From NCBI GenBank assembly GCA_028714455.1, contig JAQTMG010000001.1, forward strand, positions 568 through 64,567: a DNA stretch of 64,000 nt. The letters are read 5' to 3'. Both the position numbers and the translations under genes were made by a program. The notes beneath the pieces are model-generated. The model ran no database searches, was not told where the DNA came from, and saw only the letters and a program-made list of their open reading frames with translations. Source of the DNA: Patescibacteria group bacterium. GTDB taxonomy: Bacteria > Patescibacteriota > Patescibacteriia > CAIXNZ01. Position 1 is the first letter of the stretch. Each line of letters starts with the position of its first letter. Below, in pieces: positions 25,150 to 61,002 of this stretch.

Positions 25150-25235
25150 ATTTTTACTGCTTTGAGCTTAGAGCTCTGAGCTCAGGGCTCATAGCCCATT
25201 ACCAAACTAAAACCCCGGCGGGCGGGGTTTTAGTG

Positions 25236-26156: not shown

Positions 26157-27101
26157 ATGGAAAAATCAAAGTTACAAAATTTAATCCGCGAGTTTCTCGA
26201 ATATCTCGAGATCGAAAAAGGCCGTTCCCGGATGACCATCAGAAATTATGAATTTTATTTACTGCGTTTTTTAACTTGGTCAAATTTTAAAAATCCAGAA
26301 CAAATCACCAGCGACACGGTGCGCAATTATCGGCTCTGGTTAAATCGCCAGAAAGATTCGACTGGACAATTTTTAAAGAAAAATACGCAAAACTATCACT
26401 TAATCGCCTTGCGCGCCTTTTTAAAATATCTGGCTAAGCGCGATATTAAGACTTTGCCGCCGGAAAAAATTGAATTAGCCAAAATGCCAGACCGCCAGAT
26501 TGAATTTTTAGAAGGTTTTGATTTGGAAAACTTTATGGAAGCGCCAATGAAAGTTGAAGAACCGGAAATAATAAGATTGCGTGACAAATCAATTTTAGAA
26601 ACCTTGTTTTCAACCGGACTTCGTGTGTCAGAACTTTCCAATTTAAAAAAAGAGGTTGTTAATTTAAATAAAGATGAATTCACGGTCCGCGGCAAGGGTT
26701 CAAAGCTGCGCGTTGTTTTTCTTTCCAACCAAGCTAAATATTGGCTGAAAAAATATCTGGAAGCGCGAAAAGACATGTCGCAATTTCTATTTACCAATCA
26801 CGACAAAGCCGGTAACAAAAGAAATAAAAAGGGTGATGACAAACCTTTGACGCCGCGCAGTATTCAAAGAATCGTGGAAAAATATGCCAAGGTCGCGGGC
26901 ATCACCAAAAAAATCACGCCCCATGTCCTGCGACATTCTTTTGCCACTGATTTATTAATCAACGGCGCGGATATTCGTTCTGTCCAATCAATGCTGGGCC
27001 ATTCCAGCATCACCACGACTCAAATTTATACGCACATTACAGACAGGCAACTACGCGAAGTGTATAAAAATTTTCACGGCAAGAGAAGAAGAAAGGAATA
27101 A
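26157..27101 (+). CDS. XerC/XerD-like tyrosine recombinase
   Basis: RDKSILETLFSTGLRVSEL, VRGKGSK, HVLRHSFATDLL, LGHSSITTTQIYTH. Confidence 0.93.
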   Translation: MEKSKLQNLIREFLEYLEIEKGRSRMTIRNYEFYLLRFLTWSNFKNPEQITSDTVRNYRLWLNRQKDSTGQFLKKNTQNYHLIALRAFLKYLAKRDIKTLPPEKIELAKMPDRQIEFLEGFDLENFMEAPMKVEEPEIIRLRDKSILETLFSTGLRVSELSNLKKEVVNLNKDEFTVRGKGSKLRVVFLSNQAKYWLKKYLEARKDMSQFLFTNHDKAGNKRNKKGDDKPLTPRSIQRIVEKYAKVAGITKKITPHVLRHSFATDLLINGADIRSVQSMLGHSSITTTQIYTHITDRQLREVYKNFHGKRRRKE

Positions 27102-27159: not shown

Positions 27160-27192
27160 ACCCCTCACCTTTTCTTTGAAAAGGTGAGGGGT
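27160..27192 (-). terminator. intrinsic terminator of the TR-like unit
   Basis: ACCCCTCACCTTTT/AAAAGGTGAGGGGT stem with U tract on minus strand. Confidence 0.8.
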
Positions 27193-27207
27193 AAGTGTTC
27201 AAATACC

Positions 27208-27357
27208 TTACTTGCGAATGGCCAGGAACCGCCAACTGCCAAGCCACTTACTGTCAACATTGTTCCAGTAGAGGTTGAGCTTGCGCTTGCCATCATTGAA
27301 GACCAGGCACGGACAGTTACGATTGCCGTTGTCATTGACCCAGACCGAGCCGAGATT
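27208..27357 (-). repeat. DGR template-repeat-like copy
   Basis: 150-nt ungapped match to the 3' end of 27682-28296; AAY-rich; by hand 33 mismatches, 20 at adenines of this copy. Confidence 0.8.
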
Positions 27358-27681
27358 ATACAGAATACCGCCAAAGCCACTGCCCATTGAGTACTCTCTG
27401 GACTGTATTTTATGCGGGAGCATCCTCCCTTGATATTCTGTACCAAGTATTTTCATTTTTAGAAATACCAAATGTATGCTAAGCCAAGACGTGTCCTGAC
27501 CTATTCTAACGAATTTAGTATTCTAGATTTCAACCGCCCAAAGCCGTGACCGTGGGCTGATTCGTTTACTATCCATAAAAAATTATAGCACAAAAAAAAC
27601 ACCGCGCAGATATTATCCACGCGGTGATATGATTTGCAAGTGTCCAAGTGCCAAGAGCTCAAGGTTCCAAGAATCCAAGAA

Positions 27682-28296
27682 CTACTTGCGGACGGCCAAG
27701 AAACGGCAACAGGCACCCCAATGACCGTCACCACCGAACCAATAGAGGAAGAGCTTGCGCTCGCCATCAGTGAAGTTCAGGTACGGACAGCTACGATTGC
27801 CGAAGGCATCGACCCAGACCGAGCCGAGAGCGACGATCGGAAACTCCCGTTGAACATCCGGGTTGGCCGCTCCAAAGGCGAGCAGGTGTTCAATGCTAGC
27901 CGGCTTAAGACCCAGACCGTCAAGATGCGCCAGCGCTTCTTTGGTCGTAGCGTCTTTGTTGAGATGAACCAGAACCAATTCGGCTTCTTGCTGACCGACG
28001 CCCTGGACAGGAAAGTGCTTGTCGCTGATGTCGTCATTGACCCAGGCATATTTGCCGAGCTTGATCATCTCGGTGAGCGTCTTGCCGTAGTCCACGACCA
28101 CTCTGTAGGTGTCGCTGGCTTTTTGCCGGCCGAACATGATCAGTTCGGCAACCTGCTTGACCAACTTGCTGTCAGTGAGCAGGCGGTGCAGATCGTCGTC
28201 GCCGCCGCCCAATTCCAGGACGGCATTTGTGATCGCTTGCATTATGGACCACATTTTGCCGGCGGCCTTCAAAAACTCGCTTTTCTTTCTTGCCAT
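27682..28296 (-). CDS. putative DGR target protein with C-terminal variable region (27682-27831)
   Basis: AAGGAGG SD before MARKKSEF; C-terminus FPIVALGSVWVD..GNR.CPYL....ERKL.L.W....W...CRFLAVRK resembles CPR DGR targets as I recall them; adjacent A-rich repeat. Confidence 0.8.
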   Translation of the reverse strand: MARKKSEFLKAAGKMWSIMQAITNAVLELGGGDDDLHRLLTDSKLVKQVAELIMFGRQKASDTYRVVVDYGKTLTEMIKLGKYAWVNDDISDKHFPVQGVGQQEAELVLVHLNKDATTKEALAHLDGLGLKPASIEHLLAFGAANPDVQREFPIVALGSVWVDAFGNRSCPYLNFTDGERKLFLYWFGGDGHWGACCRFLAVRK

Positions 28297-28645
28297 TGTC
28301 AAATCCTCCTTTGTCGCGCTTAGCGACTCCAGTGGCTTGCCCCTTGCTTTGACTTTCAAGGCCTAAGGCTTGCCAAGTATGCTTTCATACTATCATACTT
28401 TTATAATTTTGTCAATGATAACGATTCAAAAATTAGCTAATATTAAATAAATAAATTTTTTAGCTATCTTTAGACAATAAATCCAGGCAAAGTTGACTAA
28501 GACCAAAATTTTTGCTAAACTATATTATAATATAGCTCTGGGCTCGGAGCTTTGAGCTTAGAGCTTTTTAAATAAAACATTCTAAAATTGTTCCGAAGGG
28601 ATGCCTTTGGCATAAATTGTAAATTGAGAATTGTAAATTGTTTCA

Positions 28646-28711
28646 GACTCCGTAGTTTCCGCCAGAGGCGGACCACGAATCGAGCTTTGCTCTGGTTCGT
28701 GGCAATGGATA
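28646..28711 (+). pseudogene. 5' tRNA-Arg fragment interrupted by a 45-bp double hairpin
   Basis: GACTCCGTAGTT|insert 28658-28702|CAATGGATA versus intact GTCCTCGTAGTTCAATGGATA. Confidence 0.8.
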
Positions 28712-28728
28712 TCAAAAAATTAACACCT

Positions 28729-28800
28729 GTCCTCGTAGTTCAATGGATAGAACAAGAGCCTTCTAAGCTCTGGATTGGGGTTCGATTCCTCACGGGGACA
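28729..28800 (+). tRNA. tRNA-Arg(TCT)
   Basis: Cloverleaf, AGAGC-CTTCTAA-GCTCT anticodon arm, GGTTCGATTCC. Confidence 0.93.
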
Positions 28801-28805
28801 TCAGT

Positions 28806-28906: not shown

Positions 28907-29251
28907 ATGTTTGATTTTGAAAAACTTGAAGTTTATAAAAAAGCCAAAAATATAAATGTTGAAATTTCGGAATTTTTAAAATCTGCAAATGTAGATATTT
29001 TCCTGAATAATCAGTTGAAAAGAGCTTCGTTAAGCATATTATTGAATATTGCGGAAGGTAGCGGTAGATCAACAAAAAGAGATAAAAGAAATTTTTTTGT
29101 CATTGCTCGCGGTTCGGTCTTTGAGTGCACTTCAATTTTTGATCTATTATTCACAGAGAAAGAAATTGAAATTGAAAAATATAATTATTTTTACAATCAG
29201 CTTGAAGAGATTTCAAAAATGCTATACGGTCTAATCAAAACTCATGAATAA
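28907..29251 (+). CDS. four-helix bundle protein (23S rRNA IVS-protein family, Avd-like fold)
   Basis: FDFEKLEVYKK...QLKRASLSILLNIAEGSGR...FFVIARGSVFEC. Confidence 0.92.
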   Translation: MFDFEKLEVYKKAKNINVEISEFLKSANVDIFLNNQLKRASLSILLNIAEGSGRSTKRDKRNFFVIARGSVFECTSIFDLLFTEKEIEIEKYNYFYNQLEEISKMLYGLIKTHE

Positions 29252-38227: not shown

Positions 38228-38668
38228 TCAATGCCTAACTACTAAAAATTCTCTGCCGTTTCTTGTCGTTTTTATTTTTAGCCAGATAACTTTTTTAAAT
38301 TTTTTTAAATAATTTTTAATCTTATCCGCCCATTCAATCACCACGACGCTATTTGGGTTATTTAAATATTCTTCAAGCCCTAAATAAAATAATTCCTGCG
38401 GCTCATCAAGCCGATAACAATCTACGTGAATTAAGGCTCTGAGCCCCGAGCTCTGAGCCCCGAGCTCGTATACCTTCATCAAAACAAAAGTCGGGCTGGT
38501 GATGTGTTTTTTAATTCCAAACGCATGACCAAGAGCTTGCGCAAAAGTCGTCTTGCCCGCGCCCAAATCGCCTTCCAGCGCCAAAATCTCCCCGCCCTTC
38601 AACTTTTCGGCAATCTTGGCGGCGATCTTGGTAGTATCTTGTTCTGATTTTGAAATGATTGTTTTCAT
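38228..38668 (-). CDS. tsaE: tRNA t6A biosynthesis ATPase TsaE
   Basis: GDLGAGKTTF, ITSPTF, HVDCYRL, VIEWAD. Confidence 0.95.
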   Translation of the reverse strand: MKTIISKSEQDTTKIAAKIAEKLKGGEILALEGDLGAGKTTFAQALGHAFGIKKHITSPTFVLMKVYELGAQSSGLRALIHVDCYRLDEPQELFYLGLEEYLNNPNSVVVIEWADKIKNYLKKFKKVIWLKIKTTRNGREFLVVRH

Positions 38669-41095: not shown

Positions 41096-42366
41096 ACAAA
41101 AATTCAAATTCAAACGGCCAAAATTTTTCTGGCCTCGGAATCGCACCTGCTTTACTAGATACAATCGCCAGATTAAATTTTAAAACTCCCACACCAATAC
41201 AACGCCAGGCCATCCCAATCGCCTTGCAAGGAAAGGATTTGGTTGGCGTGGCACAGACAGGCACGGGCAAAACCATGGCCTTTGGTCTACCAATGATTCA
41301 GCGCTTGCAACAAGTGAGCGGCCAGGGATTAATTGTTTTACCTACTCGAGAACTAGCAGCCCAAGTTGATGAGGCCTTGCGTAAAGTTGGCGGCAGGGCG
41401 GGCTTACGCACAGCACTCTTAATCGGCGGCGCTTCAATTTATATTCAAATCCAGACGCTTAAACGCCAACCTCACATCATTATTGCCACGCCAGGCCGTC
41501 TCAATGATCATCTTCAGCAAAAAACTCTGTCGCTTAAAAATGTTAAAATTGTTGTCCTTGATGAAGCCGACCGCATGCTGGATATGGGCTTTGCGCCGCA
41601 GATAAAAAAAATCTTTCAAGAACTGCCTGCCCAAAGACAAACCATGCTTTTTTCCGCCACCATTCCGCCGGAAATTATGAAAATGGCCACCAATTACATG
41701 AAACTGCCCATCAGAATAGAAGTCGCGCCAACCGGCTCAATTGCCGAACACTTAACTCAAGAAATTTTTATTATTCCCAAACCCGATAAGACTCGCTTGG
41801 TGGATAAACTTTTACAGCAATATCTTGGCCCCACACTTATTTTTACCAGGACAAAATATGGCGCCAGGAAATTAACACGAGCCATTCGCGACATGGGCCA
41901 TGCGGCAGCCGAGATTCATTCTGACCGCACTCTTTTTCAGCGCAAAGACGCACTGGCTGGATTTAAGTCTGGCAAATATCGTGTTTTAGTCGCCACTGAC
42001 ATTGCTTCGCGCGGCATTGATGTCAGTAATATTGAACTGGTAATTAATTATGATTTACCAACTAATACCGAAGATTATGTTCATCGCATTGGTCGCACAG
42101 CTAGAGCCGGGGTGAGCGGGCATGCTATTTCTTTAGCGACCCCAGACCAGCGCAAAGAATTGCACGCCATTGAACGACTAATCAAAAAAAATATACCAAT
42201 CTCCCCCGTACCAATTCTTCCTCCAGTGCGACAACCTAAATTCAAACCAATCAGCCAGCCAAGTCCTGAAAAATGGGCGCGGCCACAGGGCTCGAATTTC
42301 GCCCGTCCCAGACGCCCATTTCGCCATCAGAGGCAGAGAAATAGACAAAGACAAAATTTTCGATAA
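41092..42366 (+). CDS. DEAD-box RNA helicase
   Basis: Q motif, AQTGTGKT, PTRELA, DEAD, SAT, HRIGRTAR. Confidence 0.97.
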   Translation: MNKNSNSNGQNFSGLGIAPALLDTIARLNFKTPTPIQRQAIPIALQGKDLVGVAQTGTGKTMAFGLPMIQRLQQVSGQGLIVLPTRELAAQVDEALRKVGGRAGLRTALLIGGASIYIQIQTLKRQPHIIIATPGRLNDHLQQKTLSLKNVKIVVLDEADRMLDMGFAPQIKKIFQELPAQRQTMLFSATIPPEIMKMATNYMKLPIRIEVAPTGSIAEHLTQEIFIIPKPDKTRLVDKLLQQYLGPTLIFTRTKYGARKLTRAIRDMGHAAAEIHSDRTLFQRKDALAGFKSGKYRVLVATDIASRGIDVSNIELVINYDLPTNTEDYVHRIGRTARAGVSGHAISLATPDQRKELHAIERLIKKNIPISPVPILPPVRQPKFKPISQPSPEKWARPQGSNFARPRRPFRHQRQRNRQRQNFR

Positions 42367-60484: not shown

Positions 60485-60669
60485 ATTTTCATGTTTTTGA
60501 AAACAATATATATAAATTTCCCGACTGGATTTGAACAATATCAAATTCGAGGGCCAAGAAATATATAGCCCTCGGGCAGATACAAGTTTATGTATAATTA
60601 GCAATAATCGTATTTAACGTTAAATCGATAAGTGCGATTATAATTCAGGCCTTACGCAGACTTGTATCT

Positions 60670-60735
60670 GCCCTCGTAGTTTCCGCCAGAGGCGGACCAC
60701 GAATCGAGCTTTGCTCTGGTTCGTGGCAATGGATA
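60670..60735 (+). pseudogene. 5' tRNA-Arg fragment interrupted by the same 45-bp double hairpin as at 28658
   Basis: GCCCTCGTAGTT|insert 60682-60726|CAATGGATA. Confidence 0.8.
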
Positions 60736-60752
60736 TCAAAAAATTAACACCT

Positions 60753-60824
60753 GCCCTCGTAGTTCAATGGATAGAACAAGGGACTCCTAAGCCTTAGATG
60801 GTGGTTCGATTCCTCCCGAGGGCA
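60753..60824 (+). tRNA. tRNA-Arg(CCT)
   Basis: GCCCTCG/CGAGGGC stem, CTCCTAA loop, GGTTCGATTCC. Confidence 0.9.
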
Positions 60825-61002
60825 TTAAATTGTGTATAATTGGCCAAGATAAAAAAGGGGCCAGCCCAGATACAAGTTTGTGTGTAGGCCTAAGAAAATG
60901 GGCCTGCCCCGATAAAAGTTTATGTGAAAAATAGTTTTATGCATTGTTTGTATTGCGTACGAAAAAATACGCTTCAAACATTGAGCACACAGACTTTTAT
61001 CG

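Follow-up and report, generated by a model that had tools for sequence, protein, structure and literature searches.

The window analyzed here, a 64,000-nt stretch of DNA from a Patescibacteria group bacterium, most probably contains what is left of a Patescibacteria diversity-generating retroelement (DGR) organized as TR-(avd)-RT. The avd and reverse transcriptase (RT) genes of this cassette were likely deleted when its template repeat (TR) recombined with a variable repeat (VR) belonging to a paralogous target, leaving behind a hybrid and probably non-functional copy of the template. A preliminary description of the locus had offered two interpretations, a DGR that lost its RT and a satellite cassette whose own TR is served in trans. 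DGR origin and RT loss stand, for the TR-avd-RT arrangement is present in relatives at the same locus; the satellite part is poorly supported.

Target gene and repeat pair

The target gene is an open reading frame of 204 amino acids (27682–28296, minus strand) preceded by a sigma-70-like promoter candidate (28387–28415, minus strand; 10 of 12 consensus matches, a pattern match only). Its GC content is 56%, versus 41% for the window. The structure model of the protein (pLDDT 93.8, built from 110 sequences) has N-terminal helices (residues 1–58) and a predicted C-type-lectin-fold domain (about residues 59–204), and it places the VR (27682–27831, minus strand; the last 49 codons and the stop codon, as delimited by the repeat alignment) in the last strands and loops. 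A check of the target for a C-type-lectin fold had been suggested, and the model agrees with such a fold. Nearly all of the 50 matches listed from a VIA-align comparison with 48,161 chains are C-type-lectin (CLec) or FGE-type folds, all with Z-scores below 8 (best match: Z 7.7, rmsd 3.2, 102 aligned residues), and they include the DGR targets TvpA (Z 6.2) and Mtd (1yu0; Z 6.1, rmsd 3.1, 106 aligned residues). On this predicted model, and with Z-scores in that range, the VR lies at the end of a CLec fold, as is the case for DGR targets with CLec or Ig folds. A Foldseek search with the model returned no match at E<=0.001 (best E = 0.046), and sequence searches of the PDB gave only weak, unrelated rows, with no sequence-level match to the solved DGR targets. 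The family is absent from Pfam, NCBIfam, and PADLOC. It has 4777 homologs at E<=0.001, and the nearest ESM Atlas clusters are unnamed and mostly from Minisyncoccota.

The VR aligns without gaps over 150 nt to a second copy of the repeat (27208–27357, minus strand), with 33 mismatches. This reproduces the alignment first reported, including its 20 mismatches at adenines and every codon change named at the time (AAC>TTC at repeat codons 10, 28, and 32, AAT>GGT at codon 33, AAT>ACT at codon 21, and AAC>AGC at codon 14). Mismatches affect 20 of the 35 adenines of the copy (57%) and 13 of its 115 other bases (11%). The bias is significant (Fisher p = 1e-7) and, together with the related cassettes with RT at the same locus, upholds the DGR origin. 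In a genome-wide self-comparison of 827 repeat alignments, the pair ranked first for base bias (p = 2e-6); the two other rows below 1e-3 were an unrelated paralog pair and two members of the second target family described below. Relative to conserved TR sites, the VR has lost 23 of 40 adenines and changed 5 of 87 other bases.

The adenine-specific pattern of the pair is less clean than in relatives. It has 13 non-adenine mismatches versus 0–3 in seven related cassettes, which suggests that the template in this copy is not intact; 7 of the 13 map to ancestral adenine sites. TR and VR have one exact stretch of 19 nt in common.

Downstream of the VR is a spacer (27600–27681, minus strand) with a hairpin that has a 12-bp stem (27600–27626; z = -3.8). 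By analogy with the hairpin after the VR of phage BPP-1, the basis for assigning a role to such elements (PMC3240598), this stem may be the usual cis element that follows a VR; it is also terminator-like.

Other elements were noted around the target. The gene at 28907–29251, encoding a four-helix bundle, was considered as an Avd and rejected (23S-IVP-family protein, 13 bits, at the same place in G001, a relative of the same genus). A 164-nt repeat with 90% identity (28638–28801 and 60662–60825) carries two tRNA-Arg genes and includes about 90 nt of common upstream sequence with a palindromic element. Short heptamer-like dispersed repeats (family D2) lie upstream of several genes (7344, 25154–25197, 28530, 38431–38474, and 56207), and similar heptamer runs are also found 3' of VR stop codons.

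Reverse transcriptase search and related cassettes

The absence of an RT from the window was confirmed, and no RT of the DGR type was found in the 893-kb assembly (16 contigs, scored 100% complete). The sole Pfam RVT_1 match in the assembly (C3:84440–84919) lies within a gene of another contig (C3:83864–85216; L001:925–2277, minus strand), and a six-frame scan for RT motifs identified no RT-like context. Being the only RVT_1 match, this gene could be proposed to serve the cassette, a reading that is almost certainly wrong: its best profiles are those of retrons (St85 family, 112 bits; PADLOC III-A, 115 bits), and it scores 8.4 bits against a DGR RT profile. The latter was built from the RTs of 14 relatives and gave 267–510 bits for six held-out RTs and 87 bits for a 66-amino acid fragment; among 25,783 six-frame pieces of the assembly, nothing scored above 8.4 bits. 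A tblastn search of the assembly with the DGR RTs of four relatives also had its best match (E = 0.016) on the retron-like gene. This gene has a long non-coding region upstream, with matches to related RTs in both G001 and G002. Nine of the 32 contig ends have no overlap partner, and the absence of RT thus applies to the assembly rather than to the cell.

Extended from the window to the full genome, the search for cassette components returned no DGR RT, four weak Avd matches, and further VR-bearing genes without a TR. The Avd matches (NF033474) reach 49 bits at best, against a cut-off of 80, and no avd is present between the copy and the neighboring xerC gene. The best of them, a lone gene for an Avd-like four-helix bundle (C1:133998–134384, 49 bits), has no TR or RT nearby. 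The VR-bearing genes form a second DGR target family with six dispersed members (C5:32240–32959, C5:47649–48377, C2:34930–35541, C4:1656–2198, C1:183646–184176, and C3:51245–51826) and a fragment (C5:53467–53826). Their ends are hypervariable and adenine-biased when compared to the TRs of relatives (p 4e-11 to 0.06 in 18 comparisons). In relatives, this family is accompanied by intact TR-avd-RT cassettes; a search for its TR in this assembly found none.

The target of the window has matches in 19 of 40 relatives, and in seven of the 40 the target, TR, and a DGR-type RT are adjacent. The mismatches between repeats fall at adenines in 21/21 (G001), 23/23 (G003), 17/18 (G005), 25/25 (G009), 13/15 (G020), 11/11 (G028), and 17/20 (G034) of the cases. 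All five relatives tested have an antisense avd between TR and RT, with scores (64–73 bits) that are below the 80-bit cut-off. Furthermore, a 22-nt motif of the TR leader is sufficient to retrieve 14 loci of the same cassette, many of them duplicates (8 distinct TRs in all). Eleven run into avd and RT in the order of architecture B3 (TR, antisense avd, RT), an order that the window locus does not have; two end too early and one (L145) is deleted. Four genomes with the motif are titled Buchananbacteria, Falkowbacteria, Uhrbacteria, and, in one case, a ‘Gammaproteobacteria’ bin; together with the mostly Minisyncoccota protein clusters, these names point to a Patescibacteria (CPR) host.

Two of the related cassettes show damage of their own. 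L145 (motif at 2090) is a decayed cassette in which the leader runs straight into the last 65 codons of RT; the junction appears to be at a short common sequence. This locus is on a single short contig, and the fusion is possibly an assembly join. The RT of the otherwise complete cassette L066 (G034, C1 near 41318–41950) appears split across frames.

The locus is marked by a convergent neighbor of the cassette, a xerC/xerD-type recombinase gene (26157–27101, plus strand). G003 and G009 have the cassette at this xerC locus, with the end of RT a few bases from the convergent xerC; in the window, xerC comes directly after the copy and a hairpin. The xerC locus holds a lone target in G001 and nothing in G002. 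The VR of the lone G001 target has 17 of 26 mismatches at A when compared to a distant TR of the same genome. This lone target (L069:6319–7011, G001 contig C26) contains a 78-nt internal tandem duplication and encodes 230 amino acids.

Relatives also have cassettes at other sites. The rnc-NUDIX site has an intact cassette in G005 and lone targets in G001 and G002. In this assembly, the site of the G005 cassette holds a lone diverged paralog (C1:150566–151180; L003:5567–6181) with 38% identity to the target, and the site of the G001 cassette is empty (C9:13419). All three of the relatives' cassette sites are internal to contigs in this assembly, with neither avd nor RT. A gap that is still open corresponds to a site with a target in G002. 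A tandem duplication of about 512 nt (98% identity) was also observed in this assembly at L003:8344–9378.

A hybrid template copy and the alleles of the VR

The 324-nt region from the VR to the copy aligns well with four intact cassettes. It includes the conserved TR leader (27358–27599, minus strand), with an extended -10-like box near 27582–27590 and the 22-nt motif at 27432–27453. The leader probably comprises the promoter together with the 5' portion of the template RNA; an Rfam search over the cassette identified no family at the cut-off. The copy that follows has two parts. Repeat codons 1–29 (27271–27357, minus strand) are TR-derived; codons 30–49 and an in-frame TAA (27208–27270, minus strand) are VR-like and lead into a VR-type spacer with a 15-bp hairpin and a T-run (27160–27207, minus strand; hairpin at 27160–27192, z = -5.2). 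This spacer and hairpin occupy the place of the TR 3' spacer, avd, and RT of relatives, about 1.4 kb that is missing at the window locus.

The two parts differ in how they relate to the VR. Where intact TRs never have an adenine, the copy departs from the VR at 0/56 positions in codons 2–29 and at 9/42 in codons 30–49 (p = 3e-4, an optimistic value because the switch point at codon 30 was picked after inspecting the data). Ancestral adenines were lost at 4 of 22 sites in codons 2–29 and at 6 of 16 in codons 30–49. Over its whole length, 10 of 40 conserved adenines are gone from the copy, and 8 of 87 conserved bases of other kinds are changed (p = 0.02, a modest difference); intact TRs have each lost 0–2 of the 40 adenines. 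A stop codon with a VR-type flank is found in 8 of 8 VRs and in 0 of 8 distinct intact TRs, and it is present after the window copy. The start of a T-rich spacer and a small hairpin, found 3' of all 8 distinct intact TRs, are replaced at the window copy, which has no non-coding TR spacer at its 3' end. Hairpins of the 15-bp type also follow lone targets of G001 (C4 and C32) and five of the six second-family targets in this assembly, and related hairpins follow ordinary, non-target genes as well.

This pattern suggests that codons 30–49 of the copy derive from the VR of a paralogous target. The simplest reading is that the hybrid arose from a crossover near 27270 between the TR of the cassette and a paralogous VR. 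We propose recombination of TR by VR because the target, VR, hairpin, leader, and start of the TR remain in place and a VR-like end replaces the spacer, avd, and RT. The donor VR was not found among the loci compared (best identity, 75%), and no intact cassette at the 14 leader-motif loci has its RT followed by a second target.

An alternative history, in which the TR degenerated where it stands, through drift or through recombination with mutagenized cDNA, and a separate deletion took avd and RT and introduced a common terminator hairpin, appears improbable. It could account for the four adenines lost before codon 30 and is consistent with the presence of the hairpin family after non-target genes, with the different, microhomology-like deletion from leader to RT in L145, and with TR mutagenesis as described for an engineered E. 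coli system with a recombinase (10.64898/2026.07.21.739853). However, decay in place does not explain why the in-frame stop and VR-like spacer are exactly at the VR position, nor the step in non-adenine differences at codon 30.

The sequence is present in the assembled contigs of three landfill metagenome runs of one study (X1, X2, and X3). A fourth run (X4, share 0.06) had only pieces from other organisms and was left out, as were three rows of other letters in X1 that resulted from the TR copy aligning to the VR. One contig of X1, which may be the source run (27163–28680), has no difference from the window; it is the one VR contig of this run, with no variant. A contig of X3 (27169–27492) covers the copy, also without differences. 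Thus, the hybrid lies inside single difference-free contigs of two separately assembled runs. This argues against an assembly artefact, in which a jump from the TR into a second VR would have dropped avd and RT. Such a jump, scarcely credible as an explanation, could have used the 19-nt exact stretch or the hairpin that is repeated in the genome, and the run contigs do break at the hairpin, none of them spanning the join of hairpin and xerC by 31 letters in both directions. Yet both flanks are syntenic with G001, and this synteny supports the hairpin-xerC join.

The runs also revealed a second allele of the VR. A contig of X2 (27735–28680; depths are 3.7 for X2 and 5.5 for X3, and the contigs of both may mix strains) differs from the window at 18 sites in 97 nt of VR versus 1 in 849 nt outside it. 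The X3 contig (27638–28200) has 28 differences in the 150-nt VR versus 3 in 413 nt outside; it diverges from the gene beyond 28200 and beyond 27638 and may come from a paralog. The two contigs are identical wherever they overlap in the VR. Their differences coincide with adenines of the intact TR of G001 in 18/18 (X2) and 27/28 (X3) cases, and for 26 of the 28 in X3, 6 or more of the 8 TRs have A at the site. Only 14/18 (X2) and 18/28 (X3) are at adenines of the window copy. Hence the adenine-specific variation expected from a DGR is real in the population, as sampled by contigs of one study, but tracks the adenines of an intact TR and not, throughout, those of the copy to which it had been linked. 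A search of metagenome contigs for the lineage-specific TR/VR pattern gave 0 matches, in a collection from which records of this genome may have been withheld. These alleles are best explained by recent mutagenesis of the VR from an intact TR that existed recently or exists outside the assembly.

The same alleles bear on the satellite interpretation, in which the window copy is transcribed and used in trans by a DGR RT-Avd complex. Of the 28 differences in X3, ten fall on bases of the copy other than adenine, and three of these ten gain an A: at 27731, 27725, and 27716, the copy reads T, G, and T and the second allele reads A. This indicates that the copy as it stands did not write the second allele. 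In codons 1–29, by hand count, the second allele and the copy differ at 15 sites, all of them adenines, and have three non-adenine bases in common at codons 17 and 19. This agreement could reflect an intact TR with the same 5' part that wrote the allele, either ahead of the crossover or in a sister strain still equipped with the machinery; chance or gene conversion could also produce it. The satellite reading could draw on this agreement, on the conserved leader with its promoter-like box, and on the lone avd-like gene at C1:134037 (49 bits). Nevertheless, it is very improbable: the second-allele adenines are absent from the copy, the assembly has no DGR-type RT, and the copy lacks the 3' spacer that in BPP-1 is needed for Avd binding and processive cDNA synthesis (PMC6182149).

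The role of that segment also informs the fate of the hybrid. The BPP-1 segment downstream of the TR binds Avd and is required for processive cDNA synthesis (PMC6182149), and it also primes the cDNA (PMC12875486). Because this 3' segment binds Avd and primes and sustains cDNA synthesis, the hybrid copy is, by analogy, probably inert.

A dead hybrid would also be compatible with continued diversification of the gene as a remote target of an intact cassette that was not assembled or binned. This possibility, which differs from the favored explanation only in present activity, we regard as unlikely. Consistent with it, two VR alleles occur on backgrounds that are 99.3–99.9% identical, and the other 5' end and 3' flank of the X3 contig suggest a paralog absent from the assembly. 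G001 provides a precedent: its intact cassette sits at a different locus, and it has remote targets with adenine bias (the 17/26 mismatches at A described above). The six VR-bearing genes of the second family without a TR in the assembly, the open gap at a site with a target in G002, and the 9 open contig ends point in the same direction. On the other hand, the genome was scored 100% complete, the three cassette sites known from relatives are all contig-internal here and have no avd or RT, and X1 gives a single VR contig without a variant, though contigs drop rare variants.

Under the favored explanation, loss of avd and RT by recombination between TR and a paralogous VR, the RT-Avd complex of the intact phase would have copied the TR RNA with errors at adenines, and the mutagenized copies would have rewritten the binding surface of the lectin-fold protein. 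The TR would then have paired with the VR of a second target located downstream or with that of an incoming ‘lone target-xerC’ haplotype like the one in G001. The strain would now be left with a single frozen VR allele, unless that allele is served by an intact cassette elsewhere.

It is tempting, if doubtful, to extend this history into a routine way for Patescibacteria to switch off and move DGRs through TR/VR recombination among paralogous targets. A TR-by-VR crossover would excise avd and RT and lock in a selected allele, as at the window locus, and VR-by-VR exchange would shuttle the whole cassette between target loci, leaving lone targets behind. If true, this would explain why one cassette is found at three sites in close relatives, each site being lone-target or empty in the others. 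It would also mean that both states coexist in one landfill population and that the loss was caught within about 0.1% genome divergence.

Comparison with known systems

The window cassette is a recently active, now decayed DGR of the commonest CPR layout, without RT, avd, and TR spacer. Wu et al. (2018; PMC5758913) assign architecture B3, TR-(avd)-RT, to 90% of their CPR set, and Roux et al. (2021; PMC8144416) describe an enrichment of DGRs in CPR and landfill metagenomes. The relatives' order of target, TR, antisense avd, and RT resembles the CPR B3 DGRs and DGR clade 2 of the latter work, as do the single-domain target with a C-terminal VR, the lack of a named Pfam domain, and the chromosomal location. 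The window locus differs from them in that avd, RT, and the TR 3' spacer are missing and the TR copy ends like a VR. It also exceeds the limit of up to 11 non-adenine mismatches that Wu et al. report for putatively functional DGRs (13 in the window pair; PMC5758913).

Loss of DGR machinery with leftover targets and decayed DGRs in Patescibacteria are already known. Also in print are remote targets and the frequent inactivation of DGRs, with over half of the candidates discarded as broken or incomplete (PMC5758913). The hybrid junction is the one distinctive detail of the locus. The literature searched, of partial coverage, yielded no description of a natural TR/VR hybrid. Weighing against the proposed crossover, a DGR reconstituted in E. 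coli rarely showed recombination between TR and VR (PMC12875486). What looked like an RT-less cassette becomes a decay product with a readable scar. Furthermore, an adenine-biased TR-like copy is not necessarily a working template, and surveys anchored on RT miss targets that varied very recently. If hybrid junctions were common, they would provide a simple route to the high inactivation rate of DGRs and to the scattered lone targets of CPR genomes.

The DGR of Bordetella phage BPP-1 (mtd, avd, TR, brt) is similar in its adenine-specific changes, post-VR hairpin, and lectin-fold target (predicted here). Unlike the window cassette, it is phage-borne, complete, and active, and its avd is upstream of the TR on the same strand. 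Isolates of Treponema denticola also have leftover targets after loss of the core DGR (PMC4891356). As in the genome described here, their diversified targets outlast the machinery and several targets are dispersed per genome. In T. denticola, however, the RT and TR are both gone, whereas the window keeps the leader and two-thirds of the TR, fused to the end of a VR.
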